A DNA stretch of 64,000 nt. Origin: Nitrospirota bacterium (lineage in GTDB: Bacteria > Nitrospirota > Nitrospiria > Nitrospirales > Nitrospiraceae). The translations under genes were made by a program, and so were the position numbers. The notes beneath the pieces are model-generated. The model was not told where the DNA came from. It was given only the letters and a program-made list of their open reading frames with translations, and did not search any database. Of the stretch, positions 10,169 to 64,000 are shown piece by piece. The DNA lies in NCBI GenBank assembly GCA_030682135.1, contig JAUXQT010000035.1, forward strand, positions 1,022 to 65,021, given 5' to 3'. Each line of letters begins with the position of its first letter. The stretch's first letter is position 1.

Positions 10169-10234
10169 AACAGGCACGAGGCTTGGGGTGAGAGGTTCCC
10201 CCCTCGCCTCTAGCCTCTCTCCCCGCACCTGAGA

Positions 10235-10633
10235 TTATGGGATATCGTCGAGAATAGTGGACTGAATCGATGGCAGTGGCGCGGTTTGGCGGGGAGGACC
10301 AGGGAGGACGAGCGCGCCCCCGCTTTGGTTCCCGCCTTGGATGAGCCCGATCGAGAGTTGCGGCCCGAGCGTGCTCACAGCCCCGCTCCAGGCCTGACCG
10401 GTCGTGGGGTTCCGAAAGCTGAAGGTTTGAAAATTATTCCCGGGATTGTAGAGAAATCCCTGTGTGCCTTGATTGTCGAGATAGAGATTACCCGGGCCGG
10501 TCAGATTGAACAGAGGCGCGACCCCCCCGTCGAATGAGCGGACACTGGAAACGGATTGAGCCCAGAGGGACGCATCCAGCGACGGGAGCGAGAACAGTGA
10601 GAGGACCAGCGCAGCAATCGCCAGAAGGCGCAT
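10235..10633 (-). CDS. secreted hypothetical protein
   Basis: MRLLAIAALVLSLFSLPSLDASLWA signal peptide; Gly/Asn/Gln-rich mature part. Confidence 0.5.
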   Translation of the reverse strand: MRLLAIAALVLSLFSLPSLDASLWAQSVSSVRSFDGGVAPLFNLTGPGNLYLDNQGTQGFLYNPGNNFQTFSFRNPTTGQAWSGAVSTLGPQLSIGLIQGGNQSGGALVLPGPPRQTAPLPSIQSTILDDIP

Positions 10634-12311: not shown

Positions 12312-13028
12312 ATGATGGCGCCTGAGCCCGGTCTTCATGCGACAGCGGCTCAGGCCGACGAACGGGGAGCGGCCCTCGCGCTGCTTCCCATCGCCACGAC
12401 CCTCGCTTTCTACGCCCTCCCCGCCTCGCTTCAGGCACAACCATTTCTCCAATTCGCGCCGCAACTGATCGCGTATCTTGCCCTTGGCCTCTGGGCCTCG
12501 CGTAACCGCAACATCGTCTCTCGGCTGGGGCTGGAGAAAGAAAAGATAGGGAATGGTCTATGCTGGGGACTCATGACAGGCCTGCTGCTCGGTGGCCTGA
12601 ATACCTTCGTAATTCTCTCCGTCTATCCGCATCTGGGCTATGACATCAGTTTCCTTACTGCCACACCGCATGCCCAACTCCCTCTCCTCGTCATGGTCCC
12701 CTGGTTCATCTGCGGCATCGCGCTCTTTGTGGAACTGAACTTTCGAGGATTTATGCTGGGGCGACTGGCCACTCTTGAGTCGCAGCTTTGGAGATCCGAT
12801 CTTGCCTCCCGCCTCTCGCCCCTTGCCATTTTCACCAGCGCACTGATATTTGCTTTCGACCCCTTCATGGTGAATACGTTCCAGCACCTTCATTGGATCG
12901 CGCTATGGGACGGTCTCATCTGGGGAATCATCTGGCTCACAACCAAAAACCTCTATGTCACGATCGTCGCCCACGCGGTGGAGGTGTTGGTGATGTATGG
13001 TGCCATCCGTGCCACCTTGATGCCGTGA
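12312..13028 (+). CDS. CPBP (CAAX) family intramembrane metalloprotease
   Basis: Polytopic. VELNFRGF (EExxxR-like) and HAVEVLVMYG (HxxxN/D-like) motifs. Confidence 0.7.
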   Translation: MMAPEPGLHATAAQADERGAALALLPIATTLAFYALPASLQAQPFLQFAPQLIAYLALGLWASRNRNIVSRLGLEKEKIGNGLCWGLMTGLLLGGLNTFVILSVYPHLGYDISFLTATPHAQLPLLVMVPWFICGIALFVELNFRGFMLGRLATLESQLWRSDLASRLSPLAIFTSALIFAFDPFMVNTFQHLHWIALWDGLIWGIIWLTTKNLYVTIVAHAVEVLVMYGAIRATLMP

Positions 13029-13035
13029 GCGCCTC

Positions 13036-14055
13036 ATGAACCCATCATTTCCCAGCTTTCTGGTGAATGACGTCTTCGGGGACCCAGGAGTCTACGTGGA
13101 GATCCGCTGGACGAAGCGAGCCCTGCTATTTGATCTAGGCCACAACGACAGGTTGGGAGCAAAGAGGCTCCTGCGTGCCAGCGACATTTTCATTTCACAT
13201 ACACATGTCGACCATTTCATCGGATTCGATGCAGTGCTACGAGTAGCCTTGGGGCGAGGCAAGACGGTCCGACTCTTCGGCCCTCCCGGACTCATCAACA
13301 ATGTGCAGGGAAAATTGCAGGGCTACACATGGAATCTGGTTGATGGCTATCCGCTGACCCTCGACGTCCAGGAGTTTCACCCCCAGGAAATCAGGCGGGC
13401 ACTGTTCCGCGCAACCGACGGGTTCCGCCTGGATGAACAACCATCCCTCCCTCTCGTGCCGGAACCAGCCACAGGCCGATTCATTGTCCTCAACGATCCC
13501 ATGTTCACCGTGAGCGCGGTTTCCTTGAACCATCGCATTCCCTCGTTCGCCTATTCTTTGGAGGAACAGTTCCACATCAATGTGAATAAGCAGAAGCTCC
13601 ACGATGCGAACCTGCCGGTCGGTTTCTGGCTCAAAGACGTGAAACAGTACATCTGGCAGGGCCAGCCTGACGAGTTCCGCTTCACGGCCAGGCTCTATGA
13701 TGAGCACCGCCTCGAAGAACGGGAATTGATATTGGGCGAGATCAAAGAACGGTTCTGCACCATTTCACGCGGGCAAAAGATCGCCTACGTCGTCGATGCC
13801 AGGTTCGATGAAGAGAATGAAGCCAAAATCATTGCCCTCGCTCGCGGCGCAGACCTGCTCTACTGTGAATCGCCCTACCTGGACGTTGATGCAGCGAAAG
13901 CCCACAACCGGTATCACCTGACAGCCAGACAGGCTGGACTCATGGCACGCCAAGCCCAGGTGCGAGACCTGGTTGTCTTTCACTTCTCGCCCCGGTATAC
14001 CGGACAGGGCGAGGCCTTAGCCCTCGAGGCGGCGGAGGCATTTCATGGAACCTGA
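13036..14055 (+). CDS. MBL-fold metallo-hydrolase (ribonuclease Z-like)
   Basis: ISHTHVDH (HxHxDH) motif. Late motifs LLYCES and HLTARQA resemble RNase Z/ElaC. Confidence 0.75.
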   Translation: MNPSFPSFLVNDVFGDPGVYVEIRWTKRALLFDLGHNDRLGAKRLLRASDIFISHTHVDHFIGFDAVLRVALGRGKTVRLFGPPGLINNVQGKLQGYTWNLVDGYPLTLDVQEFHPQEIRRALFRATDGFRLDEQPSLPLVPEPATGRFIVLNDPMFTVSAVSLNHRIPSFAYSLEEQFHINVNKQKLHDANLPVGFWLKDVKQYIWQGQPDEFRFTARLYDEHRLEERELILGEIKERFCTISRGQKIAYVVDARFDEENEAKIIALARGADLLYCESPYLDVDAAKAHNRYHLTARQAGLMARQAQVRDLVVFHFSPRYTGQGEALALEAAEAFHGT

Positions 14056-14067
14056 GGAGACTACAGC

Positions 14068-14406
14068 GTGAATGAATTTGTGAAGTATACCGTGTATTTT
14101 CTATTGGGCGGCACCATCGTCAGTATCTCGACCTATCTCGGCTCGCAAGGCCGTTCGTTTCTCGCCGCCTTTGCCAGCACCTTTCCTGCCATCACGGGCG
14201 CGACGTTCATTCTGATCTATCTCAATGGGGGCAGCGAGTCGTTGGTGGGATACGCGAAGCATCTATTGTGGTTTGTGCCCCCTTGGATCGTATACGTCAT
14301 CACCATGATTCTTGGCGTCCCACGCGTCGGGTTCTGGCCAGCCATGGCCTTGTCTATGACATTGTATTTCAGTTGTATCGGGCTGCTGAAGCTCGCTATC
14401 CGATAA
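14068..14406 (+). CDS. small 4-TM membrane protein (DUF3147/GlpM-like)
   Basis: 112 aa, four hydrophobic helices, GTG start. Confidence 0.45.
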   Translation: MNEFVKYTVYFLLGGTIVSISTYLGSQGRSFLAAFASTFPAITGATFILIYLNGGSESLVGYAKHLLWFVPPWIVYVITMILGVPRVGFWPAMALSMTLYFSCIGLLKLAIR

Positions 14407-14550
14407 CCTCGCACGGAAGACCACGGCCGTTGTTAAATAGGGATTGAATCGAAGAGGACGAGGTTGTGGACAAGCAGGGCAGGAAAAACCATTTCGCGAC
14501 AGCAGAAATCCGATGGCTAGCTTGGCCTAAGCGACCAGCAGAGTGGGATG

Positions 14551-14690
14551 CAGGATGCTGCTAGCAGGCTGTTGATAAAGGCCGCCAGCGGCGTTCTCGC
14601 GGCGCGCAGAGGCTCAACGTACTGCCGCGAGTACGCTTCGCCTCTCCGCTTGCTGCGGCCTTGCTGAGCGGCCTTTCTGAACAGCCTGAG
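14551..14690. repeat. RepA copy 2, preceded by an extra solo terminus
   Basis: GCAGGATGCTG-CTAG-CAGGCTGTTGATAAAGGCCGCCAGC...GCGGCCTTTCTGAACAGCCTG; two RepA termini abut at a CTAG. Confidence 0.7.
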
Positions 14691-14766
14691 ACCACTGATA
14701 ACGACGTCTACAACTGTTCTGGCATGCGCATTTTTGCAGTGGCTTGGTATTGTTCTCAACAACCTG

Positions 14767-15345
14767 CTAGGCGAGATGGCTGAAGTGGAATCGGTTCATT
14801 TCACTCATGGCCGACACCAGCCGGTCGATCGCGACGGTGACGCAGTGACTCGCCTCGTGTGATGGCCCCTTGCCGCCGGCCCAGATATCGGGCGGCTGCT
14901 CCACTTCACAGACGTTCTGGCAAAACCTGGTAATAGACTGCTTCCAATAGGTCGGGTCCGCGGCTTCGTCGAGAAAGTGCTCCCGATCCTTCGTAAAGGG
15001 CGCATCGAACTGCTTGGCCCTCATCTGCCACATCTGCTCCATCGCGTTCTGCCGTTCCTGGCTAAACTCAAGCCCTCTGGCTTTTTCGTTCAACGCGGCG
15101 AACAGTCCCCCGATCACCCGTTCGACATGCGACTCGGGAAAGGCGCCGACACAGGCTTGCACGACGAGATATTTATGAAAAATAAAGACCTCGGCGCTGA
15201 TGCGGGCCTCGGTGGCCGAGGGATCGTAGGCCCGCGCCAGCTCTTTCATCGCATCGCCTGAGGCACTCTCAAGGCTCGCACCCAGCAACCCAGCCAGTTG
15301 ACGCCCCAGGCCCAAGTAATCCACCGGAATCGCAGCATGTGTCAT
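14767..15345 (-). CDS. hypothetical protein
   Basis: 192 aa from MTHAAIPVDY; good coding-like composition, no motif recognised. Confidence 0.5.
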   Translation of the reverse strand: MTHAAIPVDYLGLGRQLAGLLGASLESASGDAMKELARAYDPSATEARISAEVFIFHKYLVVQACVGAFPESHVERVIGGLFAALNEKARGLEFSQERQNAMEQMWQMRAKQFDAPFTKDREHFLDEAADPTYWKQSITRFCQNVCEVEQPPDIWAGGKGPSHEASHCVTVAIDRLVSAMSEMNRFHFSHLA

Positions 15346-15530
15346 GATCGATCGTCTCTTCCCGTGAGCCAAACTCACGCCGAGCGTAATCGAGGCAAAG
15401 AGAAATTGCCAGAAAATAGTCAGACGAATCCGTGAGGAACTGTTCTTGTTCCCCACCCGCGCGATCCGTCCTTGAACCCCTGCAGCCGGATTGTTACCAT
15501 GCCGCTTCTTCTTTTCCTCTCAACCGGTCT

Positions 15531-18338
15531 ATGGCACAGATCCGACAGCCACCTGCTCCGTCCCGCGATCTCATCGTCGAAGGCGCACGCCAAAACAACC
15601 TCAAGAACATCTCACTCCGTATCCCCCACAATCAGGTCACGGCCATCACGGGCGTCTCAGGATCGGGAAAATCCTCTCTCGCGTTCGACACGTTGTTCGC
15701 CGAAGGCCAATGGCGCTATGTGGAATCGCTCTCCATTTATGCCCGCATGTTTCTCGATAAGGTCAACCGGCCCGATGTCGACCGGATCATCAACGTTCGG
15801 CCCGCCATTGCGATTGAACAGAAGAATCCCATCCGCACCGCCCGCTCGACGGTCGGAACCACGACCGAAATTGCCGACCTCTTGCGCCTCCTGTTCGCCA
15901 AAGTGGGCCATCCGGTCTGCCCCGATTGTTCTATCGATGCACGCAGCTTTCATCCTGGCAGCGTCGCCGACGACCTCCTGAGTCATTGCGCCGGCACACG
16001 AGCCATGATCCTCTTTCCGGTCAAAGCACCGGCGCCGAAACAGGACCAGGCCTTTCTCCAATCGCTGTTGCTCCGCGGCTTTACCAGAGTGCAGTGCGGC
16101 GAGGCCATCCTCGACCTCCACGACACACTCGGCCTTCCCATAGTCAGGCCGGACCAACTGTATGTAATCCTCGACCGGCTCGTGATCCGGGAAGACAACC
16201 GATCCCGCCTCGTCGAAGCGATTGAAACCGCCTTTCGCGAAGGCGAGGGCCAATGCCGCGTGGAGGTCATCGACCAGGGCCCACGAATCTACAGCACAGA
16301 TTTTCGCTGCCAACAATGTGGCAGAACCTTCGAACCGATTCGGCCCGTCCTCTTTTCCTTCAACCATCCGCTCGGTGCCTGTCCCGAATGCAAAGGGTTC
16401 GGCAATATTCTGCGGTACGATCCCGCCCTCGTCATCCCCGACCACGACAAGTCGTTGGCCCAAGGCGCGATTGAACCCTGGAGCAAACCCAGCGGCGATT
16501 GGTGGCAAAAGCAAATGTTCCTCGCCATGAAGCGGCGTGGAGTCGACCTCACGATCCCCTACAAAGACCTGCCACAGACGATCCAGCAGATCCTCTGGCA
16601 GGGAGAAGGCAAACTGGAGGGCGTACAACAATTCTTCGAATACTTGGAGGGAAAGCGCTACAAACTACATGTGCGCGTGATGCTCAGCCGCTACCGGACA
16701 CCGGTCTCCTGTCCGACCTGTCAGGGGTCTCGCCTCAGACCGGACGCGCGGTATGTGAAGATCGCGGGCACTGACATTCATGAGCTCTCTTCACTCACGA
16801 TCGAAGCGACTGCCGCTTGGGTCACGTCTCTCCCCCTCTCTCCCTATGAAGAACAGGTCGCCCGCGACATCCTCAGACAGTTAACAGCCAAGCTCGGCTT
16901 TCTCCTCCGCGTGGGCCTCAGCTACCTCACCCTTTCCCGTCAAACCCGCACGCTCTCGGGAGGAGAGGCTCAGCGCGCAACCTTGGCCAACCAACTCGGT
17001 GCCCGTCTAGTCGGTACGCTCTACGTCCTCGACGAACCGACCATCGGACTCCATCCCCGTGACACCGCCACACTCGCCGGCATCATGCGAGAGCTGGCGA
17101 GCCAGGGTAATACGGTCGTCGTCGTGGAACATGATCGCCAGATGATGTTGGCAGCCGACTATCTCGTCGAGATGGGCCCCTTGTCCGGCGAAAAAGGCGG
17201 CGAGGTGATCTGCGCAGCGCCCAGACAGGAATTCATCGCGGACCGGCGGTCGATCACGGCACGCTACCTGCGTAACGAAGACGAGATTGCCACGCCACGC
17301 GCCCGACGGAAAGGGAATGGGAAATTTCTTGTCATCGCCGGAGCCTGCGAGAATAACCTCAAAGATCTGTCCGTCCGTATTCCGCTCGGCATGCTGGTTT
17401 GCGTCACCGGCGTCTCAGGATCCGGCAAAAGCACCTTGGTCGAAGACACGCTGTATCGCGCCATCGCCAGAGCCTTTCGTATTGAGTCACTGCCCATGGG
17501 CAAGTTTTGCGCGATTAAAGGAGTCGAACATCTCACCGGCATCAAACTCATCGATCAAGAACCGATCGGCCGAACGCCACGCTCGAATCCGATCACCTAC
17601 CTGAAAGCGTTCGATGAAGTTCGCGCCCTCTTCGCGTCCGAACGCGAGGCCCTCAGAAGCGGGCTCACGCCTGGGCACTTCTCCTTCAATACCATCGGAG
17701 GCCGGTGCGAGAAATGCGAAGGAAGCGGCGTCGAAAAGCTGGAGATGTACTTCTTCGAAGATATCTATGCGACCTGCGAAGCCTGCGACGGGAAGCGATT
17801 TAAACCGAACGTCCTCTCCATTCGTTATCGCGGGAAAACGATTCATGATGTGCTGCAAATGACCGTCGACGACGGGCTGGGATTTTTCAGCGGCTCACCC
17901 AAGCTCACCGAGAAACTCCACCTGCTCTCCTCCATCGGGCTGGGCTATCTCCGGCTCGGCCAAGCCGCCACGACCCTTTCAGGCGGCGAAGCCCAGCGGT
18001 TGAAAATCGCCGCCGAGCTCAAAGTCTCGTCTGCGAAAAATGTGCTCTACATCATGGATGAACCGACCACCGGACTGCATGTCGAAGATATTAAGAAGCT
18101 CCTCGCAATGCTGCAGAAACTGGTGGGTAGCGGCCATACCGTGGTGGTGGTCGAACATAACCTCGACGTCATCAAATCGGCGGATTGGATTATCGACTTA
18201 GGGCCGGAAGGCGGCTCGGCAGGTGGACAGATCGTGGCAGAAGGACGACCGGAACAGGTGGCGAAGATAGCGGCGTCCCACACTGGGCGATTCCTCGCAG
18301 GCGCGCTCATGCCGGCCATTGATAACCTTGGTCACTGA
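15531..18338 (+). CDS. uvrA: excinuclease ABC subunit A
   Basis: Two ABC modules (GVSGSGKSS twice, LSGGEAQR twice), zinc-finger CxxC pairs. Start at MAQIRQPPAP (ATG 15531). Confidence 0.95.
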   Translation: MAQIRQPPAPSRDLIVEGARQNNLKNISLRIPHNQVTAITGVSGSGKSSLAFDTLFAEGQWRYVESLSIYARMFLDKVNRPDVDRIINVRPAIAIEQKNPIRTARSTVGTTTEIADLLRLLFAKVGHPVCPDCSIDARSFHPGSVADDLLSHCAGTRAMILFPVKAPAPKQDQAFLQSLLLRGFTRVQCGEAILDLHDTLGLPIVRPDQLYVILDRLVIREDNRSRLVEAIETAFREGEGQCRVEVIDQGPRIYSTDFRCQQCGRTFEPIRPVLFSFNHPLGACPECKGFGNILRYDPALVIPDHDKSLAQGAIEPWSKPSGDWWQKQMFLAMKRRGVDLTIPYKDLPQTIQQILWQGEGKLEGVQQFFEYLEGKRYKLHVRVMLSRYRTPVSCPTCQGSRLRPDARYVKIAGTDIHELSSLTIEATAAWVTSLPLSPYEEQVARDILRQLTAKLGFLLRVGLSYLTLSRQTRTLSGGEAQRATLANQLGARLVGTLYVLDEPTIGLHPRDTATLAGIMRELASQGNTVVVVEHDRQMMLAADYLVEMGPLSGEKGGEVICAAPRQEFIADRRSITARYLRNEDEIATPRARRKGNGKFLVIAGACENNLKDLSVRIPLGMLVCVTGVSGSGKSTLVEDTLYRAIARAFRIESLPMGKFCAIKGVEHLTGIKLIDQEPIGRTPRSNPITYLKAFDEVRALFASEREALRSGLTPGHFSFNTIGGRCEKCEGSGVEKLEMYFFEDIYATCEACDGKRFKPNVLSIRYRGKTIHDVLQMTVDDGLGFFSGSPKLTEKLHLLSSIGLGYLRLGQAATTLSGGEAQRLKIAAELKVSSAKNVLYIMDEPTTGLHVEDIKKLLAMLQKLVGSGHTVVVVEHNLDVIKSADWIIDLGPEGGSAGGQIVAEGRPEQVAKIAASHTGRFLAGALMPAIDNLGH

Positions 18339-53232: not shown

Positions 53233-53305
53233 GAGCCGTACTCCACGGATCTACAGGCCACCTCGGAAACGAGCATGAGCAACAGCATCGGCCTTCACTG
53301 CGGCA

Positions 53306-53585
53306 GAATACATCGGTATCAATATTTTGTGAAGCGCCTGATGGCGGGATGGTCTGTCTGGTTTGTTTTGTTTGTCTGGTTGGATTAGTTTTTCTGGTTT
53401 TTCCGGTTGTGGTTTCCATCCGGCCAACCAGCCAGGCTCATCCCATGCCGTGCCTCTCGCCTTTCCCGCACGTCCCGCTCGCGCTCCTCATCCAACCAAA
53501 TGCACCACATGAACCAGAAGAACCGGACAAACCAGAGAGACCAGTCGGCAGCGTGATAGGTACAGTCAGTCAGAGGAGAGTCGGT
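53306..53585. repeat. RepC composite copy G (~280 bp)
   Basis: GAATACATCGGTATCAATATT...TCTGGTT arm, inner module CCGGCCAACCAGCCAGGCTCATCCCATGCCG..CCCGCACGTCCCGC, AACCAGA arm, tail CCAGTCGGC. Confidence 0.85.
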
Positions 53586-53603: not shown

Positions 53604-54992
53604 TCATCGCGCGAGCTTCTTTTTGATAGCAGCCAGGTTCTCAGGGGTCGAGCGCACCCGTATCGTGAGTCCCTCGGCATCATAGGCTTCGGACAAGATC
53701 CGCATCTTGGCACGGATCTCTGCCACGACCCCTTGAGCCGTAAACGGAATATGCAATTCCTCATCGACCATCTCGCTCTCAAAGAACCGCATAATGCGCT
53801 CACGGAGCGCCTGCAGATCGTCCTTGCTTCTCGTAGACAGAAAAAAGGCGTCCGGATATTCCGCCTTCAGGGCCGCGAGCTCGTCCGGTCCGAGACGATC
53901 TTGTTTATTCAACACCACGAGGCTGGGAATATCCGTGGCGCCGACTTCGGCTAACACCGTCCGCGTGACGTCGAGCTGGGACCGAAAGGAGGGATCTGAG
54001 GCATCGACGACAAACAGCAACAGCGAGGCACTGGCCGCTTCATCCAGCGTCGACTTGAACGACGCCACCAGGTCATGCGGGAGCTTTTTGATGAATCCCA
54101 CCGTATCGCTCATGAGCACTTTGGGACGCGTGTCAGGATACAGGGGCCGGATCGTGGTATCGAGTGTGGCGAACAGCTTGTCGGCCACGAGCACATCGAT
54201 GCCCGTCATCGCGCGCATCAGCGAGGATTTACCGGCATTGGTGTACCCGACGAGCGCGACCGTCAATTCGTGTTCCCGTCTCGCGCGGCGCGTCTGATGC
54301 TCGTCCCCGATCGACGCCAATTCGGTCCTGAGTTCTTTCAGGCGATCGCGGATTCTGCGCTTATCGAGCTCAAGACTCGTCTCTCCTGACCCTTTGGCTC
54401 CGACCCCCCCGCCTTGCCGCTCGCTGCCACCACCGGTTTCCCGCAAACGCGGCGCAAGATAATTAAGCCTCGCGATCTCCACCTGGAGCCGGGCCGCTCT
54501 GGTCCGCGCGTGCCGGCTGAAAATCTCAATGATGACGCCGGTACGGTCGAGCACAGGAACCCCGGCGGCACTTTCAAGATTTTTCAACTGGGACGGCGAC
54601 AGATCACAGTCCACGATGACGATCTGCGCCTGCTCGCGAGGGCCAGGTGCGGCCTCGCCGGTGTCATCCGATTCGTCGTCTTCCGATTCCTCCGTGACGT
54701 CCGAGGCCGCAGCCTCGCGCTTCGACGCCGCTTTGTGCATCGGCCGTTCAAACGCCACCGCGACTGTCCCGGAACCACCGGTCCACTGTGCCAATTCGGC
54801 GAGTTTTCCCTGACCCAGGACCGCCGCATATTTATCGGAACTACGTTTTTGCGTCACCTGGCCCACGACATGGTGCCCGAGGGTGTTCACCAGACGGGTG
54901 AGCTCTTGCAGCGAACTCTCCAGCTCCTCCACGGTCACGCGAGGGGTGCGGATCGCGACAAGTACGGCATTCGATTGTGCGGGCGTCGACAT
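53604..54992 (-). CDS. hflX: GTPase HflX
   Basis: HflX N-domain, then GYTNAGKSSL (G1), DTVGF (G3), NKQD (G4). Start uncertain (54992 or 55094). Confidence 0.9.
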   Translation of the reverse strand: MSTPAQSNAVLVAIRTPRVTVEELESSLQELTRLVNTLGHHVVGQVTQKRSSDKYAAVLGQGKLAELAQWTGGSGTVAVAFERPMHKAASKREAAASDVTEESEDDESDDTGEAAPGPREQAQIVIVDCDLSPSQLKNLESAAGVPVLDRTGVIIEIFSRHARTRAARLQVEIARLNYLAPRLRETGGGSERQGGGVGAKGSGETSLELDKRRIRDRLKELRTELASIGDEHQTRRARREHELTVALVGYTNAGKSSLMRAMTGIDVLVADKLFATLDTTIRPLYPDTRPKVLMSDTVGFIKKLPHDLVASFKSTLDEAASASLLLFVVDASDPSFRSQLDVTRTVLAEVGATDIPSLVVLNKQDRLGPDELAALKAEYPDAFFLSTRSKDDLQALRERIMRFFESEMVDEELHIPFTAQGVVAEIRAKMRILSEAYDAEGLTIRVRSTPENLAAIKKKLAR

Positions 54993-55329
54993 CGATGGAT
55001 TATCCTTGGCTACAGGTTGGTGAGGAATGTTCATGTTAACAGGGACGTTCGTGGTAAGGCGAGCACGCATCGCAGGATCTCTATAGACGCCCAACGATCA
55101 TTCCCGTGCCAACCTTGATAAGGATGAGATGGCCCGGAGAGGACAAGGCAGGCAGAGGCCATTGCAGGCGATGAGTGAACAGGCGCGATTGGCGGGAAGC
55201 CATCCGATTTGGGATTCGCCATCGGCGGCGCGGTGGGGACGAAAACTCAGATGCGGGCGTTACGTGAGGCGGCGTGACTGACGGGACGGCTTCGAATTAA
55301 GTAGCCTGGCCCCTTTTCTTCTTCGAGCT

Positions 55330-56142
55330 TTACTCCTCAGATCCCTCTGTGATCGGCCGGCGGCAGTGCTGCGTCAGAGCATGGGATACCGCATTGATGG
55401 CGTCAGTCGACAGGACCTGCGGCTCGTGGTCGAGAAATTTCCCCAGAGCCTTTGGATTGAGCACCCACACATCTTGCATGCTTCGAGGCCCAGTCCTCTC
55501 CACATACCATTCAGGAAACACCACAACCGGTCGGACCGTAAAGGTTGTTCCCCGACCATCATTCAGCAAATTGGCGAGCCACTGAGCTTGAGCGCGCGCT
55601 TGTTTGAGCGGCTTTTGAAACGAACGGCCATCCTCAAGACGAATGGCCTGACCGTCATAGAACATTTTATGGCTGCCACCCGTTAATTTGCTTCTCGTTT
55701 TCGTTTCAATCATGAAAATGCCTGCAGGCCCCACAATGGCATGGTCGATATTGAAGTTCGCACCAGGGATATCATGAAAGACCCTATAGCCCTTTCCCCG
55801 AAGCGGCTCCAACAGCTCTCCCACTACCCGTTCTCCATCTCGGCCTAATCGGAGGTTCCTGATCATCGACACAAAAGGGAGTCTCTTCCTCCAGGTATAA
55901 ATGATGGCAGCAACCGCCAGCGTGGTTGACGGGAATGGATTGGACGGAGTCGGCATCCACCAACGCAACCATTCGATACCTGCGATAAGGATCAAGAATA
56001 CCGTGACGATCGAGTCCTGCATAAATGTATCTTGCAGCTCGCTGATGCGTTCTTCTAGTGACTGTCCAGGCAGCCGGAGCGGTGGGGTCTTAAGCTGAGA
56101 GCGACGTAGTTGACGATTGGTGTTCCATGCTGAAACAGACAT
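55330..56142 (-). CDS. membrane-anchored NERD-domain protein
   Basis: Two N-terminal TM helices, then GERVVGELLEPL..GYRVFHDIP..FNIDHAIVGPAGIFMIETKT (NERD motif). Confidence 0.75.
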   Translation of the reverse strand: MSVSAWNTNRQLRRSQLKTPPLRLPGQSLEERISELQDTFMQDSIVTVFLILIAGIEWLRWWMPTPSNPFPSTTLAVAAIIYTWRKRLPFVSMIRNLRLGRDGERVVGELLEPLRGKGYRVFHDIPGANFNIDHAIVGPAGIFMIETKTRSKLTGGSHKMFYDGQAIRLEDGRSFQKPLKQARAQAQWLANLLNDGRGTTFTVRPVVVFPEWYVERTGPRSMQDVWVLNPKALGKFLDHEPQVLSTDAINAVSHALTQHCRRPITEGSEE

Positions 56143-57138: not shown

Positions 57139-57248
57139 GTCGATCAGTCATCCAGTGCGCTCTCAGAGACATCCCGTTACAACGTGAACATGTATATCGT
57201 ATGGCGAAGGGAGATCAATCGCGTGTATGTGAGTGAATCGCCGAATAA

Positions 57249-57504
57249 GAATACATCGGCATCAATATTTCTGGAAGTGCCTGATGGCGGGAGGGTCGGT
57301 CTGGTTTGTTTCGTTTTTCCGGTTGTGGTTTCCAACCGGCCGGCCAATCAGCCAGGCTCATCCCATGCCGCGCCTCTCGCCTTTCCCGCACGTCCCGCAC
57401 GTCCCGCACGCCCCTCATCCAACCAGATCAACCAGAAGAACCAGACAAACCCAATAGACCAGTCTGCGGACTGTGGGGATGGACCGTCAGCTGCTGGCGA
57501 GGTG
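57249..57504. repeat. RepC composite copy H (~255 bp)
   Basis: Colinear with copy G; the inner module has CCCGCACGT repeated three times. Confidence 0.85.
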
Positions 57505-58117: not shown

Positions 58118-58230
58118 TTGGTCTGTCTGGTTCTTCTGGTCTATCTGGTTTCTCAGGTTGGATTTCCGGGCCGGCCAACCAGCCAGGCTCATTCCATGCC
58201 GTGCCTCTCGCCTTTCCCGCACGTCCCGCA
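58118..58230. repeat. RepC composite, truncated copy I (left half)
   Basis: TTGGTCTGTCTGGTTCTTCTGGTCTATCTGGTTTCTCAGG..CCGGCCAACCAGCCAGGCTCATTCCATGCCGTGCC..CCCGCACGTCCCGCA. Confidence 0.8.
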
Positions 58231-58526
58231 CAGACCCAAGGTCCAGCCTGCAACAGCGTAGCGCAGAGCGCGATGAGACGTTGATTCATCCACGTTCTAA
58301 TCTCAGCACTCAGAACCCAGAACTCAGAACTCAGCACTCTCAAAGATCAGCCCCTTCACGCCCCCTCGCACATCATCGTACCTGGGCTAAAGCGGCTTCG
58401 AGGTCGTCGGTGATGGCGTGCGGCGAGAAAAGATTCCCGAGCCCTTTGTTTTGTTCTAAAGAGAGTGATGGAGAAATAGAATACCCCATCACAAGTGGAG
58501 CGATGAGACCTTCTTGGCATCTCCGA

Positions 58527-61500
58527 TTACTTTTTCCCAGCAGCACTTTCAACAATCGACGGGATATCAGAAACTTTCTTGACGATGGCAAAACACCAAT
58601 GTCCATACGTACCGTCAGCATTCACCGCAGCAACCCACCGGTCAGCTGCTGCTCGCTTCACCTCTTCAAGAGGATCATACCCCTTCGTCTCCAAAATTAG
58701 ATGACAAGCTGACTCACCAGTAAGCCGAACAATGAAATCTGGCACGTAGTCGTGCATCTGCCCATTGTGCAAGTAGGGAATCGCGAACCCAAGCCCGGAG
58801 TTTTTAACAAATGCCTCGACAGTCCTATCCTTGTCCAGGTAATAGGTCGCCGATTGTTCCCATTGTTTGGTGTCCGCCACCACGTAGTTAAGATGAGACT
58901 TATTGACTTCACGCACGTCACGGCTCGTCCAAAAATCCACATCCCCAGTAGAACCTGGTCCGCGAGTTGCTTCGTACCGAGGAATTTCTGGAGCTTCCCC
59001 TTGTGTGGTATCAGGTCGAATAGCTTCCAATAACCGTTCAATGACCCACCCATAGTACGGAGCGAGAAAAAGATCTTTTTTGTCAGACGGTGGCCGAGCC
59101 TCGACTTTCGTATCAAGGTACAACTGGATGATATTCGCGAGCTGAGGGAACAGTTTGTGCGGCGGAATCGTGCACTGTTTCTGAGCGGTATACTCTCGCG
59201 CGACCGTCTTCGCGAGATCAAACACCAGCTCCTGCATGCGACGTTTTGCACGAAACTCGTTTAGGGTAACCTCATCCGCTCGTCCAGGCCCACTGAGAGT
59301 GAGCTTGCCCCCCGTGGTAACATGAAGCCCTTTCACATCTACCTCAGGCGGTATTCGGCCTGGCTCCAGGACGAGAGAGGGAACACTCCCCCAGTCCACC
59401 GTCACCCGATTGCGAATGGCTTGGGTATAGCCTTCAACCCGCGGATATGTAATTTCAAACTGTGCCTTCGCTGGGATGGCGTGCACATGATAGCGCTTGA
59501 CGCGCGGCGGCGGCTGACCCTGTGGATTGGCCTTGAATGGGATTACTTCAAAGGGAACACCAAAAACCTTCGCCACTTCCTCTGTAAGCTTGCCGTCGGG
59601 ACCAACGTCATAGTTGGCTCGTCTCAAGCCTCGCCCCACAACCTGCTCGCACAGTAACTGCGACATGAAAGGACGAAGACCGATGATGTGCGTCACCGTG
59701 TTGCAGTCCCATCCCTCCGTGAGCATGCCCACACTGATAATGCACCGCACATCACGACCTGGTGGATGGTCTGGGCGGCCCAGTTTGTCGGCCAATTCCT
59801 TGAAGCCTTCCGGATAGAGAGGCCTTCCTAACCGATCCGCCGGCCAAGTAATCTTCCCCACCGTATCGAGCGTGAATCGCATCCAACGCACTTCGTCATT
59901 CTTCGCTTCACCGGAATCCGATTCAGCAACCACTTTAGAGTCCACGCGAATCGTGTTCTGTCGGCCATTAATATTCTTAAATCCTTCGATCTTCACAGGC
60001 GGAATCCCTGTCGGTGCCTTATCTTCCGCCAGCCATTCGTAGAGGACCTTGGCAATCTGAGTGTTCTTGCACACCAGAATGAACACTGGCGGACGTGGCT
60101 CATCGCGATGGGATACCCACTCGTCCCGTTCCTTCTCCCATAGGCCACCCAACATCGCGATAGGATGATGTGCGTACTTAAGAATGGCCTCAGGCTTAGG
60201 ACTCGCCTTTTTCCCGCCACGTTCAGCCGGAGTAAGCTGTGGCAAAATCCAATGCCAGATGTTGAAGTAACCAGGAATCTCCTTGCCGGTCGCATCACGA
60301 ACAGCCAGCTGAGGAATTTTCACCAAGCCAGACTCAATCGCATCGATGAGCCCGAAGTCGCTCACCACCCACGGGAATGGTCGATTGGTGTCCTGGCCAA
60401 CTCGACCGAGAAAGTACGGAGTAGCGGAGAGATCTAGACAGACGTTAATGCCACGCAATTTCTGAATGCGATCCAGCCCGTTAATCCAGACCGTCGCCTC
60501 TTTGAAGAAATCTTCAGCTTCTTCGTCTTCCCCAAAGAGATCGTCCTCATTCTCCTCGCGTTCCTCACGCACGATACGATAGGCATGATGCGCTTCATCA
60601 TTCATCACGAGGATGTTCTGCTTCCCCCCCACTTCGCGGCCAAGAACGCGATTCACGAGAGCCGTATCGCTCTCAACATACCGTCTCGACTCCACCGTGA
60701 CCTTCTTCAGCGCCCCATCTTTCTCCCGTTCCTCTGTAATCACCATCAACAAACCAGCAGCAACCTGCCGCTCAAAATCTTCCAACGTGAGATAGCGTGT
60801 GCCGCGAGCTGTCGTGGTTTTCGAACTAATAGTGATGGTCTCTCGTGTCCGAACTTCTACGCCTGCCTTATTCACCCTCCCGCCGACCCCGCCCGTTTGA
60901 ATGGCCTGAGGTTCGAATACATGCCAATTGGTGACAAGCACTCGGCCTTGCGAAAGCAGCGGCATCAAGTGAGACGGAACGAGATCACGAGTGCGATACA
61001 GACTCGCTTCTCCTCCTTCGGGAGCCAGCTCCCGAAGCCGATTACGAATCGTCACGTTGGGACAGACCACTAACACGACGTCAGAGAATCGCGCGTCGCT
61101 TCGGTCATTAACCTTGTTGAGTATGCTCCACGCCGCCAGCATACCCATCACAGTGGTCTTGCCGGACCCTGTCGCCATCTTGCTCGCATATCGCCGAAAC
61201 CCCGCGAAGCCTTGCGCGCGTTTCTCAGCGCTGATCTCTTCTTGCGGCACATCGATGCCTTGCCGCAAATCTCCACGAGCCTCAATGAGAAAGATGATCG
61301 TTTCAACCGCATCGAGTTGTGCGAAAAACAGACGCTGCGCTCGCCCATCTCGCCGCCACCACTGCAACAGCTCATGGGTCGTTCTCGTCACGCCCGGATA
61401 GCCATCCGATCGCCACTTCTTAACCTGCGCCCTGATGCGGTTGACCAGCTTCAGCTCAATGGCAGTGCCAGCAACGGTGCCATATTCTTTTTCTGGTTTC

Positions 61501-61643
61501 GCCTTGGGATCACGATAGAAATACATCGACGGTCGACGTCCGAGCCGTTGCTCGGGCATTTCGCCCTCGACGATATGCCAATGCTCTTGAGGTTCTTCGA
61601 AGGGGGAATTCAGGATGGGCTGTGGGACTTCGTAAGCGCTCAT
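58527..61643 (-). CDS. res: Res-type restriction helicase-endonuclease (type III-like R subunit)
   Basis: KMATGSGKTTVMG (Walker A), VMNDEAHHAY (DEAH), helicase C motifs (TEGWDC, QVVGRGLRR), C-terminal nuclease YVPDFIV...LILETKG. Confidence 0.85.
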   Translation of the reverse strand: MSAYEVPQPILNSPFEEPQEHWHIVEGEMPEQRLGRRPSMYFYRDPKAKPEKEYGTVAGTAIELKLVNRIRAQVKKWRSDGYPGVTRTTHELLQWWRRDGRAQRLFFAQLDAVETIIFLIEARGDLRQGIDVPQEEISAEKRAQGFAGFRRYASKMATGSGKTTVMGMLAAWSILNKVNDRSDARFSDVVLVVCPNVTIRNRLRELAPEGGEASLYRTRDLVPSHLMPLLSQGRVLVTNWHVFEPQAIQTGGVGGRVNKAGVEVRTRETITISSKTTTARGTRYLTLEDFERQVAAGLLMVITEEREKDGALKKVTVESRRYVESDTALVNRVLGREVGGKQNILVMNDEAHHAYRIVREEREENEDDLFGEDEEAEDFFKEATVWINGLDRIQKLRGINVCLDLSATPYFLGRVGQDTNRPFPWVVSDFGLIDAIESGLVKIPQLAVRDATGKEIPGYFNIWHWILPQLTPAERGGKKASPKPEAILKYAHHPIAMLGGLWEKERDEWVSHRDEPRPPVFILVCKNTQIAKVLYEWLAEDKAPTGIPPVKIEGFKNINGRQNTIRVDSKVVAESDSGEAKNDEVRWMRFTLDTVGKITWPADRLGRPLYPEGFKELADKLGRPDHPPGRDVRCIISVGMLTEGWDCNTVTHIIGLRPFMSQLLCEQVVGRGLRRANYDVGPDGKLTEEVAKVFGVPFEVIPFKANPQGQPPPRVKRYHVHAIPAKAQFEITYPRVEGYTQAIRNRVTVDWGSVPSLVLEPGRIPPEVDVKGLHVTTGGKLTLSGPGRADEVTLNEFRAKRRMQELVFDLAKTVAREYTAQKQCTIPPHKLFPQLANIIQLYLDTKVEARPPSDKKDLFLAPYYGWVIERLLEAIRPDTTQGEAPEIPRYEATRGPGSTGDVDFWTSRDVREVNKSHLNYVVADTKQWEQSATYYLDKDRTVEAFVKNSGLGFAIPYLHNGQMHDYVPDFIVRLTGESACHLILETKGYDPLEEVKRAAADRWVAAVNADGTYGHWCFAIVKKVSDIPSIVESAAGKK

Positions 61644-63298
61644 AAACTAAAAGCGCGCTGAATAGCGTCGAGCTTCTCTATGACTTCAGGATGAATCTCC
61701 TCCGGTAGCATGACGGAGGCAATCTCATTGAACCGAGTATAGGGAAAAGCATGCAGCCCAGCCGCAGCGAGGATCGGAGGAAGCACCTCGGTCCTCGCTT
61801 TCCGCTGCTGCAAGTACGCGTCCACTAGAGGGTTCGGCCTCAATGGGTCCTGAAGAAATGCCGAGGTGAAGGTTTCCCCCAAATAAGCTTTCATATCCTT
61901 CTTGGCTTCTACAGATTGCGCACCAGCACCTACCTCTTTTTCCACAAAGCGTTCTAATGTAGCTGGATGAATGAGATAGCTTTCAATCTCATAGCGCCGC
62001 CATCGGAGCCGTTGTAACCCTTGGCCCGTGATTGGAGTTTCTGGGACCCGCGGGTTGTCATCCCCATCAAGCAACATCAAGCCTGGGAGTCCGGAAAGAA
62101 CAAGTTGAATGGCTTGGTAATGATCCTCTGCTTTCACACCATGGGCTCCTGGTCGAGGCTCCCACACCGAAGGCCTCCAGAACAGCCTTGTCGTCAACGT
62201 CTGGTAAGCCGGATGGCCGAGAATCTTGGCCCACTCAATGAGTATGTTGATGTCGGTATAACCTTCGACATACAAAATGCCGGGGGCGTCCTGGGCCAGC
62301 ATAATATCTGTGTGAGTCAGAATCCCTAGTGAATCCGCAAGACGTGTGCGCTCGACCACACTGTCGAGTAATCTCGGATGATTCAGGAGCATGCAAAGCT
62401 CTCTTGGATCCACAGAATTGATGATGACTTCCGAGTGCGTGGAAATTATCAATTGAGAGCTGGTCTTGGCTGCCACTGATCGCAGTTCACCATAAATCGC
62501 ATCTTGCAAGATGACGTGCAAATGGGCATCTGGTTCGTCCAGCAATAAGGTCGATCCAGGCCGGGCATGGAGGAATGTGAGAAGCATCAAGACCTGCTGA
62601 AACCCACTGCCGGCATTAGCGATGTCGAGCCGAGGTCCATTAGTTTGAAAACGGTACTCCGCGATGATATCGGCTCCACTCGAATCGGGAGGGAGGATTT
62701 CATAGTTGAAAAGACGACGTATAGAATCTTCGATCTTCGTCCATGCAGAAGACTGGTGGGCCTCCGCCAGCAGGTTACGAATGACATCGCCGGGCTTCCC
62801 CTGGCCTAAAAGCTGATCAACTTTAGGCCGTTGATACACGGGCTCAGCTGTACTGAGACCGGTCATCGGAGGAACAAAGACCGTTTTCAGTTCAGCCTGC
62901 CGCACCATTTCAGGATCGGCATCGGGCTTGGGACGAACATAGACCTGCTCGGTACTGTCGGCCATCAACTCCATCGTCACCCACCAACCCTTGGAGTGAC
63001 GGATTTCGATCTCGATGGAGCCTGAATAGGTACGATTATTCCAAAGAAGATCAAAGGCTCGTAACGGGACCGCGGTGAATGCTTGTCTCGCGATGGGAGC
63101 CTTGGTATAGAACCCTCGGTGGCGCTGATAATCGTGGAGCTGCTTCCAGCGAGTGAGTGCAAGATCCCAGGCCGCGATGGCCTGGAGCATGGTCGTCTTG
63201 CCACAATTGTTTGGCCCTGCCAGGACAATATGGCCTGGGAGATTAAATGTCACATCCTGAAAGCGTTTGAATCGTCGGATTGTGACCCGTTCAATCAT
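61640..63298 (-). CDS. fused ABC-type ATPase / Toprim (DUF4435-like) protein, OLD/PARIS-like
   Basis: LAGPNNCGKTT (Walker A), GSGFQQV, LLLDEPDAHLH (Walker B), IISTHS, then ILYVEGYTDINIL and LMLLDGDDN (Toprim Glu and DxD). ATGA overlaps on both sides. Confidence 0.7.
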   Translation of the reverse strand: MIERVTIRRFKRFQDVTFNLPGHIVLAGPNNCGKTTMLQAIAAWDLALTRWKQLHDYQRHRGFYTKAPIARQAFTAVPLRAFDLLWNNRTYSGSIEIEIRHSKGWWVTMELMADSTEQVYVRPKPDADPEMVRQAELKTVFVPPMTGLSTAEPVYQRPKVDQLLGQGKPGDVIRNLLAEAHQSSAWTKIEDSIRRLFNYEILPPDSSGADIIAEYRFQTNGPRLDIANAGSGFQQVLMLLTFLHARPGSTLLLDEPDAHLHVILQDAIYGELRSVAAKTSSQLIISTHSEVIINSVDPRELCMLLNHPRLLDSVVERTRLADSLGILTHTDIMLAQDAPGILYVEGYTDINILIEWAKILGHPAYQTLTTRLFWRPSVWEPRPGAHGVKAEDHYQAIQLVLSGLPGLMLLDGDDNPRVPETPITGQGLQRLRWRRYEIESYLIHPATLERFVEKEVGAGAQSVEAKKDMKAYLGETFTSAFLQDPLRPNPLVDAYLQQRKARTEVLPPILAAAGLHAFPYTRFNEIASVMLPEEIHPEVIEKLDAIQRAFSL

Positions 63299-64000
63299 CG
63301 CCTAGCCCCGTTGAGCTTCTTCACGACCAGCAACTCATTGCCCCGATCGTCGATCACTTTGACGGCAATCTGCTTGTGCTCGCCCGCTTGGAACGGCGCG
63401 CTCGTCGCCCCGGAAAGATGATCCCACACGGATTCTTCATACTCGCCTTTGAGCGCTTTCTTCAGATTGTCCCAGGCGCTGGTACGAGGGAAGAAGGCTT
63501 GCGAGACATGGAAGCAGAGATCGTTGTAGTCCGTATCGAGGAACCAGGCCGGCACATCGTCACCGCTTCGATGCGTTACGTCCATGGTGATGGGATCGAA
63601 CACATCCAGACCGAGTAGCTCGACTCGATAGAGATCCTCCCCACCTTTCACCTTTTCCTTTTCACGTTTCACGCTTATTTCCGGTTGCCCACACACGCTG
63701 AAAATCTGGCTCGATCGCATGTTCTTGAGCAGATCGCCCATCATGAGGTCTGGCGTCGCCTGGACGTAGGTGGCAGGGACGCCCATCACATCGGCGCACT
63801 TGTCCACGAGAGTGCGTGCGTTGGGTTGAATGGCGAAACCGATCACATAGAGATGGGTGTAATTCTTTGCGTGGGCCTCGCGCGCCGCCTCATACACCAG
63901 CTTCTCGCTGACGGCGCCATTCTCCGGGCCGAAGACAAAGGCGACAGGCTTCTCCTGGCCATTGGTGACCAACGCTTCAGCGGATAGCGACAGCGTCTTC
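63295..64000 (-). CDS. mod: C-terminal part of a putative Mod-type DNA methyltransferase (5' end beyond the window)
   Basis: The frame stays open to position 64000 (the track's start is an internal TTG). The tail ...QIAVKVIDDRGNELLVV recalls methylase C-terminal regions. The catalytic motifs would lie outside the window, so the call rests on context. Confidence 0.45.
   Translation of the reverse strand, partial: KTLSLSAEALVTNGQEKPVAFVFGPENGAVSEKLVYEAAREAHAKNYTHLYVIGFAIQPNARTLVDKCADVMGVPATYVQATPDLMMGDLLKNMRSSQIFSVCGQPEISVKREKEKVKGGEDLYRVELLGLDVFDPITMDVTHRSGDDVPAWFLDTDYNDLCFHVSQAFFPRTSAWDNLKKALKGEYEESVWDHLSGATSAPFQAGEHKQIAVKVIDDRGNELLVVKKLNGARR

Follow-up and report, generated by a model that had tools for sequence, protein, structure and literature searches.

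This report concerns a minus-strand operon at positions 58527-64000 of a 64,000-nucleotide stretch of contig JAUXQT010000035.1 from a Nitrospirota bacterium (assembly GCA_030682135.1), with the whole stretch being referred to here as the window. The operon combines a DNA methyltransferase gene (mod, partial in the window) and a helicase-nuclease gene (res) in what looks like a type III-like restriction-modification (R-M) system, and between the two lies a third gene, termed here the middle gene. Its product is predicted to be a fusion of an ATP-binding cassette (ABC) ATPase and a Toprim nuclease domain of the OLD-family type, belonging to a branch that current profile models miss. Translational coupling links the three genes, which have long been inherited together. 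On balance, we favour the view that the middle gene is a defence module of the OLD family that works autonomously, has a stable place inside the R-M operon and is co-expressed with it. The genes are laid out as follows.

63295..64000, minus strand: 3' part of mod (last 234 codons and stop), frame open to the window edge; predicted type III-class beta-group N6/N4 DNA methyltransferase
61640..63298, minus strand: middle gene, 552 amino acids; OLD-family-like ABC ATPase with a Toprim-like nuclease domain
58527..61643, minus strand: res, 1038 amino acids; predicted superfamily 2 (SF2) helicase with a C-terminal PD-(D/E)xK nuclease, BPTD_3080 family

A preliminary description of this DNA had reported three minus-strand genes joined by ATGA stop/start overlaps, and both overlaps are indeed there on the minus strand, the mod stop with the middle start at 63298-63295 and the middle stop with the res start at 61643-61640. 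The sequence motifs it had named also translate at the coordinates expected of them.

Conservation and co-inheritance of the three genes

Relatives of the middle protein were sought in one genome per species, which gave 80 loci at 40-98% identity. These span Nitrospirota, Acidobacteriota, Planctomycetota, several proteobacterial classes and Spirochaetia, and also Verrucomicrobiota, Gemmatimonadota, Margulisiibacteriota, a Heliomicrobium and others. Both Mod and Res stand beside the middle gene in 51 of the 80, so the three-gene order that the preliminary description suggested surveying is widely kept, and at least one partner is found in 15 more; six loci beyond the 51, with one partner present, are cut off by a contig edge. 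Of the 58 Mod/middle junctions, 36 have the same 4-nt overlap as in the window, and so do 44 of the 57 middle/Res junctions. Since triads and overlaps recur in this way among the 80 loci, the arrangement is not a product of chance.

The distance matrices of the three genes were compared for 34 complete triads and are strongly correlated (middle-Res r=0.89, middle-Mod 0.82, Mod-Res 0.94, with a Mantel p=0.001 for each). The middle gene has a mean distance of 0.44, versus 0.37-0.38 for Mod and Res, and thus evolves slightly faster than its partners. Taken together, the retention of the triad, the recurring overlaps and the correlated distances mean that the three genes have been inherited, and transferred horizontally, as a unit over a long time. 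The embedding is, as far as the sequences tell, ancient and co-diverging rather than sporadic.

The middle protein

The N-terminal part of the middle protein, the head, was matched by the Pfam families AAA_21 (5.5e-20, 73.1 bits) and AAA_15 (5.5e-19, 69.5 bits), as well as by SMC_N, in keeping with the ABC-ATPase head of the preliminary description and with the profile check proposed there. The features of the head and of the C-terminal part, the tail, are listed below.

62384..63298, minus strand: ABC-ATPase head, residues 1-305 (Pfam AAA_21, AAA_15, SMC_N)
63191-63217, minus strand: Walker A, GPNNCGKTT
62588-62614, minus strand: signature, AGSGFQQVL
62516-62551, minus strand: Walker B, TLLLDEPDAHLH
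62426-62443, minus strand: H-loop, STHS
61643..62311, minus strand: predicted Toprim-like C-terminal region, residues about 330-552, with a helical tail (AlphaFold 2 and Foldseek)
62252-62278, minus strand: ILYVEGYTD (E345, D349)
62057-62074, minus strand: LLDGDD (D411, D413)
61964-62005, minus strand: RWRRYEIESYLIHP (E437, E439)

The catalytic residues are intact and conserved. In the head, K34, S231, G232, D254 and H288 are each present in 71 of 71 relatives. In the tails of the same 71, position 345 is a glutamate in 63 and an aspartate in 7, D349, D413 and E437 are each kept in 70, D411 in 68 and E439 in all 71. The PADLOC models that match the middle protein are confined to its ATPase region and comprise NsnB (of Menshen), AriA, mad3, GajA, PtuA and Old. 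The best match among PDB sequences is 6p74, the Class 1 OLD protein of Thermus scotoductus (2.8e-6), which also comes first (2e-10) when a full-length AlphaFold model (mean predicted local distance difference test score, pLDDT, 79) is compared using Foldseek, followed by PtuA and GajA.

The tail was modelled on its own by AlphaFold 2 (residues 307-552, pLDDT 89.3), which predicts a beta-alpha-beta-alpha-beta-beta core. The five best Foldseek matches of this model in the PDB are the C-terminal Toprim regions of class 2 OLD proteins from Xanthomonas and Burkholderia (6njv, 6nk8), with E values of 5e-4 to 3.5e-3, a probability of 1.00 and template modelling (TM) scores of 0.39-0.49. The next matches are PARIS AriB (8ux9_A), the Thermus scotoductus OLD (6p74), AriA-AriB (8v46_D) and GajA. 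In the model, the conserved acidic residues lie at strand ends and are candidates for a Toprim metal site. The Toprim-like tail of the preliminary description therefore stands as a predicted fold, but not as a profile assignment, as the hidden Markov models (HMMs) for Toprim and DUF4435 all lack a match on the tail. Pfam DUF4435 was matched in three of 53 distant full-length relatives (best 7e-6), at a position in the protein that was not located, and two follow-up scans of 16 family members missed the three matching relatives. A comparison of the tail model with viral structures (BFVD, Foldseek) gave no significant match, with an RloB-like protein fourth at an E value of 0.7. An hhalign comparison of the tail with a DUF3226 protein of a related locus aligned the first motif alone (VEGYTD with VEGYSD) at a probability of 7%, which is a lead and not evidence.

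When 1.84 billion representative proteins were searched with a profile of the tail, 533 clusters (50% identity) contained it. Among the 150 matches listed, nearly all of the full-length proteins are 540-610 amino acids long and have the tail at the C-terminus. An ABC-ATPase head precedes the tail in all 53 of the full-length members scanned. One distant member, P0187 (806 amino acids), has a Multi_ubiq (multiubiquitin) domain N-terminal to the ATPase-Toprim body, a fusion that may point to a connection with defence modules of the ubiquitin-like kind. The best match of the tail profile, P0121 (588 amino acids), has no Walker A motif and joins the N-terminal part of a DPPY methyltransferase to the Toprim-like tail. 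It probably arose by a deletion through which mod became joined to the 3' half of the OLD-like gene, and could conceivably be a genuine Mod-Toprim fusion.

The host restriction-modification system

The mod fragment in the window matches the C-terminal third of a long type III methyltransferase profile of PADLOC (MTase_III, 2.8e-25). The remainder was recovered from a Logan metagenome contig, L001, which is 100% identical to positions 58200-64000 of the window and runs 2.2 kb past its edge, and which supplies a full mod of 897 amino acids. The completed protein matches the PADLOC model MTase_III PDLC03632 at 7.2e-171 and Pfam N6_N4_Mtase at 1.7e-27. The partial gene had been described beforehand as the C-terminal part of a Mod methyltransferase whose N-terminus might be found by extending the contig, and the extension has now yielded both the N6_N4_Mtase domain and the DPPY motif. 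The latter is invariant in 34 loci and, at DPPY199, precedes the S-adenosylmethionine motif GSGTT495, the order of the beta class, to which type III Mods typically conform. Mod is accordingly predicted to be a type III-class, beta-class adenine/cytosine N-methyltransferase.

Res was matched from residue 7 to residue 1032 by the NCBIfam model NF046055 (BPTD_3080 family restriction endonuclease), at 1059.1 bits against a curated cutoff of 800 bits. Pfam ResIII was matched above threshold and RE_endonuc weakly (0.0022), the PADLOC model REase_III reached 1.3e-8 across 46 residues only, and the NCBIfam model PRK15483 gave 16.5 bits against a cutoff of 564. A literature search on the name 'BPTD_3080' found no paper. 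The motifs GSGKT159, DEAH349, TEGWD642, GRGLR670 and PD968..E985-x-K are invariant, or nearly so, in the 34 loci, and together with the NF046055 match they agree with the helicase-nuclease of the Res type that had been proposed for this gene. Their positions in the window are as follows.

61155-61169, minus strand: Res GSGKT
60588-60599, minus strand: Res DEAH
59706-59720, minus strand: Res TEGWD
59622-59636, minus strand: Res GRGLR
58734-58742, minus strand: Res PDF
58680-58691, minus strand: Res ETKG

With a complete Mod and a complete Res that both have conserved motifs, the R-M system is complete and looks functional, its layout being type III-like and its Res in a family of its own.

R-M systems without the gene and the gene without R-M systems

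Eleven plasmid-borne loci of the BPTD_3080 family were inspected, and none carries the middle gene. In six of them Mod and Res are directly adjacent, as on a Mycobacterium avium plasmid where the two genes overlap in a two-gene operon and Res is 58% identical to that of the window, and in the other five there are small genes between Mod and Res (a toxin-antitoxin pair, a DUF3800 gene, hypothetical proteins). The plasmid collection as a whole held no close relative of the middle gene. On one of these plasmids, from Shinella (L088, 1-10114), the Mod/Res pair comes immediately after a gene of the phospholipase D family and a large helicase-related gene, the four together having a DISARM-like layout.

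The converse is seen in 14 of the 80 loci, where the middle gene has neither Mod nor Res beside it and its neighbours are mostly housekeeping genes. When 81 neighbouring open reading frames (ORFs) of such orphan copies were checked for other R-M types, there were just two N6_Mtase matches and one McrBC match. Three loci (L034, L053 and L081) have an intact middle gene beside mere fragments of Mod or Res. The orphans are interspersed among the embedded copies in a neighbour-joining tree, and the R-M genes have therefore been lost repeatedly and independently. All catalytic residues are kept in the orphan copies checked bar one, L064, which is substituted at four sites.

The junctions of the operon also take up other cargo. 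Extra two-gene cassettes, each with an ABC ATPase and a small partner, occur in related operons at the junction of the OLD-like gene with either Mod or Res, and the types encountered were AbiL/PDC-M38-like with DUF3226, HEC-01A-like, PD-T4-4_A-like with a 152-amino acid protein, and an ATPase accompanied by DUF4276. The operon thus behaves as a hotspot for ATPase/Toprim-like systems. The cassettes are located at the following positions.

L058, 6375-7995: cassette
L059, 6015-7953: cassette
L054, 6075-7983: cassette
L074, 6173-7935: cassette
L056, 10573-12544: cassette
L061, 9647-11486: cassette

In L056, a duplicate of the Res N-terminus (309 amino acids, 9644-10573) stands before the cassette and the full res after it (12614-15730); the duplicate looks like the scar of an insertion by recombination inside the 5' end of res.

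We argue that the middle gene is accessory to the R-M system, because the Res family usually does without it, orphan copies survive, the junctions accept other cargo and viral contigs are nearly empty of the family. The preliminary description had held that the gene is not a passenger between its neighbours. This is true of its expression and linkage but not otherwise, given the plasmid loci without it and the persistence of orphans. Mod-Res pairs lacking the middle gene had been named there as a point against the proposal; such pairs are found in all 11 plasmid loci, yet the trio is kept by the 51 relatives described above.

Comparison with known defence systems

Published OLD proteins are divided into Class 1, encoded by single genes, Class 2, found with GajB, Class 3, found with retrons, and Class 4, PARIS (PMC10568477). 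There is also an archaeal OLD class, Cran1, which is reported to have a cell-cycle role. A co-diverging OLD protein embedded in an R-M operon is none of the published OLD classes. Its closest analogue in layout is PrrC, and in domain content its closest analogues are the Class 1 OLD proteins and HEC-04. The Class 1 proteins (P2 Old, 6p74) are likewise single polypeptides of ~520-590 amino acids, in which an ABC ATPase at the N-terminus is followed by a Toprim nuclease at the C-terminus, and the orphan members of the middle family resemble them in being single genes. Unlike Class 1 genes, which are single and without adjacent defence genes (PMC10568477), the middle gene overlaps both mod and res and is solitary in just the 14 loci noted above, and its tail, unlike theirs, matches neither Toprim nor OLD HMMs.

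The likeness to PARIS lies in the combination of an AAA_15/AAA_21 ATPase with a Toprim-like nuclease, and fused AriAB forms are known. The middle protein passes the ATPase thresholds of the PARIS detection rule (AAA_15 32 bits, AAA_21 27 bits) with its 69.5 and 73.1 bits, respectively, and the PADLOC AriA model matches its ATPase region at 2.9e-22. The rule as a whole failed, with no match to DUF4435 (PF14491) even at E<10, and the model for fused AriAB covers residues 2-44 only. PARIS is typically borne by phages or satellites, whereas the middle gene is chromosomal and embedded in an R-M operon. PARIS is triggered by anti-restriction proteins (Ocr), and its effector cleaves tRNA-Lys. Gabija was set aside as the UvrD/PcrA/Rep-like helicase GajB is missing beside the gene, whose neighbours are Mod and an SF2 helicase of the ResIII type, and as the GajA models match ATPase segments only. 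A retron-associated OLD protein of Class 3, which would have a reverse transcriptase and an ncRNA next to it, was rejected with Mod and Res as the flanking genes and a score of 23.9 bits for the retron effector model NF038234 (cutoff 250), and Menshen with a match to NsnB that is partial and limited to the ATPase. The middle protein had been described as having the OLD, GajA or PARIS layout in one polypeptide, of which the OLD assignment held in the best PDB sequence match and in the predicted fold, while the PARIS rule and the Gabija partner did not.

PrrC and PARIS have both been described as R-M 'guardians'. PrrC of the type Ic system EcoprrI is also a fusion of an ABC-type NTPase and a nuclease inside an R-M operon, where it serves as a backup when R-M is inhibited. 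It differs in that its host is a type I system (hsdMSR), its nuclease is an anticodon nuclease and not a Toprim domain, and it is almost always embedded, whereas the middle family has orphans. Identity with PrrC was thus rejected on fold and host, the tail being Toprim-like in its predicted fold and the host operon type III-like, although no PrrC model was inspected specifically. HEC-04 is a fused ATPase-TOPRIM protein that is embedded in Hma systems and provides defence, for which its Walker A and metal-site residues are needed (bioRxiv 10.1101/2024.01.29.577857). The 'guilt-by-embedding' survey of Payne et al., in which it was described, spanned Hma, BREX, DISARM and type I R-M systems, and not type III (bioRxiv 10.1101/2024.01.29.577857). 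Embedding of the HEC-04 kind is sporadic, whereas that of the middle gene appears ancient and co-diverging. The middle-protein tail matches no model in PADLOC v2.

Turning to the host operon, the classical type III systems EcoP15I and EcoP1I share with it the mod-res order, a beta-class Mod with DPPY and a Res that combines an SF2 helicase with a PD-(D/E)xK nuclease. Compared to these, the Mod recovered here is ~250 amino acids longer, Res barely fits the type III models and there is a third gene. Hma was rejected as the identity of the operon, since all seven PADLOC matches of Res are to R-M or Pbe models and, among the Mod matches listed (25 of 30), all are to MTase_II, MTase_III or orphan methyltransferase models. 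MANTIS, which is made up of the AAA+ protein MtsA, MtsB, a PglX-like methyltransferase and the helicase-nuclease MtsD, was rejected together with Gao_RL, as the ATPase in question is of the ABC type and not AAA+, Mod belongs to the beta class of N6_N4_Mtase enzymes, a fourth gene is lacking and Res has no PADLOC match of that sort. The literature searched held no characterized Mod/OLD-like/Res unit, in agreement with the preliminary description, yet the novelty is softened by the precedents of PrrC in EcoprrI and HEC-04 in Hma.

Proposed function and competing explanations

In the explanation that we favour, an OLD-family defence gene would have settled stably between mod and res. Its product would be made from the R-M transcript through translational coupling at both sides, the ABC-ATPase head would detect a cue of infection, and the fused Toprim nuclease would then cut nucleic acid. 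It may add a further line of defence that accompanies the R-M system and backs it up, as PrrC, PARIS and HEC-04 do for other systems, and it is from these analogies that we infer both the defence function of the middle gene and its backup role. Candidate cues are the inhibition of R-M, an anti-restriction protein or DNA ends, and the substrate could be DNA, which OLD and GajA cut, or tRNA, the target of AriB. A trigger by Ocr or another anti-restriction protein in particular would be pure inference, and Ocr-like mimics classically aim at type I enzymes, not type III, which counts against it. Several other results also weigh against the favoured explanation. The assignment of the tail to a Toprim/OLD-type fold comes from a predicted structure with moderate TM scores (0.39-0.49), and the tail alone (residues about 300-552) has no match in Pfam (E<10), PADLOC or NCBIfam. 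Profiles built from 14 close and 29 diverse tails returned noise only, and no Toprim protein, from PDB sequences. A scan of viral contigs found the family to be essentially absent, with one weak relative of the ATPase only, which is unlike P2 Old and PARIS. Furthermore, the two-sided 4-nt overlaps and the strong co-divergence would equally be expected of a true third subunit.

Such a subunit would form a complex with Mod and/or Res and be needed for, or regulate, modification or restriction, either as a latent nuclease like PrrC, masked by the R-M complex and released upon inhibition, or as an ATPase for loading or activating the methyltransferase or the nuclease, the part that MtsA plays in MANTIS. 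Overlaps on both sides in most species-level loci fit with the three proteins being made in stoichiometric amounts, the distances of the three genes are strongly correlated and the middle protein is at least 65% identical across phyla; there are precedents as well, in PrrC as an ABC-type NTPase-nuclease masked by R-M inside its operon and in MANTIS, whose ATPase is required for methylation. Against this stand the two-gene Mod/Res operon of the M. avium plasmid with a Res at 58% identity, the lack of the gene from all 11 plasmid loci, the catalytically complete copies that repeatedly and independently outlast Mod and Res, and the cassettes that were inserted next to the middle gene without the removal of Mod or Res, and we consider an integral third subunit unlikely. 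It is similarly doubtful that the trio as a whole is a three-component restriction machine or an R-M system physically coupled to its own guard. If it were self-guarding, the OLD-like protein would bind Mod/Res and remain latent until the complex is disabled, as a type III counterpart of PrrC-EcoprrI with a Toprim effector, and in a three-component machine it would instead contribute a second nuclease or a loader activity to restriction. The two-sided translational coupling and the co-divergence (r=0.89 with Res) leave room for such a system; the orphans and the relatives with Mod and Res only make it less likely, though still conceivable for this sub-clade. The opposite possibility is that the middle gene acts by itself as a Class 1-like OLD gene, for defence or as a selfish element, with the mod-res junction serving only as a safe, well-expressed harbour, with no functional cross-talk with the R-M system and with overlaps that would reflect nothing more than compaction. 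It draws on the junctions of this R-M family, which host many unrelated genes (toxin-antitoxin pairs, DUF3800, hypothetical proteins and ATPase cassettes), and on orphan copies that appear viable. But 51 of the 80 relatives stand beside both Mod and Res of a single R-M family, and 15 more beside one of them, and this fidelity at the level of phyla, along with the co-divergence, exceeds what a random harbour would lead one to expect, which makes independence quite unlikely. A role outside defence is very improbable. The gene would then encode an ABC ATPase-nuclease of DNA repair or chromosome maintenance, similar to RecF, SbcC or Cran1 and linked to R-M by chance, that might, for example, process breaks that Res makes in host DNA. 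The SMC_N/RecF-type head, the orphans among housekeeping genes and the cell-cycle role, rather than one in defence, that is reported for the archaeal OLD-family ATPase Cran1 are compatible with this, but the patchy distribution across phyla looks horizontally transferred, the linkage to R-M and other defence cassettes is tight, and every one of the best matches is to an ATPase of a defence system (NsnB, AriA, GajA, PtuA and Old).

Implications

The principle of embedding was already established, and what is new, as far as the literature was searched, is the host system, the branch of nuclease and the depth of the association. The operon adds a host system and a nuclease family to those known for nested defence genes, and offers a defined, widespread and apparently unstudied case of 'defence within defence'. 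As this branch of OLD proteins is invisible to the Toprim and DUF4435 HMMs and to PADLOC v2, tools for defence annotation miss it, and an HMM made from an alignment of the middle family would add a new family to the defence finders. Because its embedding appears ancient and co-diverging, the operon is also a valuable test bed for the question of whether embedded ABC-ATPase nucleases share no more than their regulation with the system that hosts them or have functional ties to it. It bears, too, on the cellular role of single-polypeptide, Class 1-like OLD proteins, a question raised in a review of the OLD family (PMC10568477). If the three-component or self-guarding alternative were true, the trio would establish a further class of OLD proteins, set apart by its context, and it would be a conceptual surprise only if the middle protein were an integral subunit.

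Sequences downstream of the operon

One further feature is a hairpin that follows the res stop at a distance of 18 nt and has a tail rich in T.

58483..58509, minus strand: terminator-like hairpin, T-rich tail

It is a possible operon end, although promoter and terminator scans of the operon region gave counts no higher than in shuffled sequence, and the hairpin is thus weak as evidence. An intergenic repeat of ~110-250 nt is present in three copies that are 67-87% alike (53305-53545, 57248-57462 and 58118-58229) and hold 9-nt periodic, AACCAGAAG-like sub-repeats. The last copy is just 3' of the res stop and the other two flank small toxin-antitoxin-like ORFs; the repeat may be an element of the miniature inverted-repeat transposable element (MITE) or repetitive extragenic palindromic (REP) type that marks the edges of an island. 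Farther downstream, also on the minus strand, are an HflX-type GTPase gene (53604-55094), which is 86% identical to a gene of another contig (L002) with GTP-bdg_N, GTP-bdg_M and MMR_HSR1 domains, and a 270-amino acid ORF (55330-56142) that by eye resembles a membrane-anchored NERD-type nuclease. Between these two and the operon there are several ORFs of the size of toxin-antitoxin genes.

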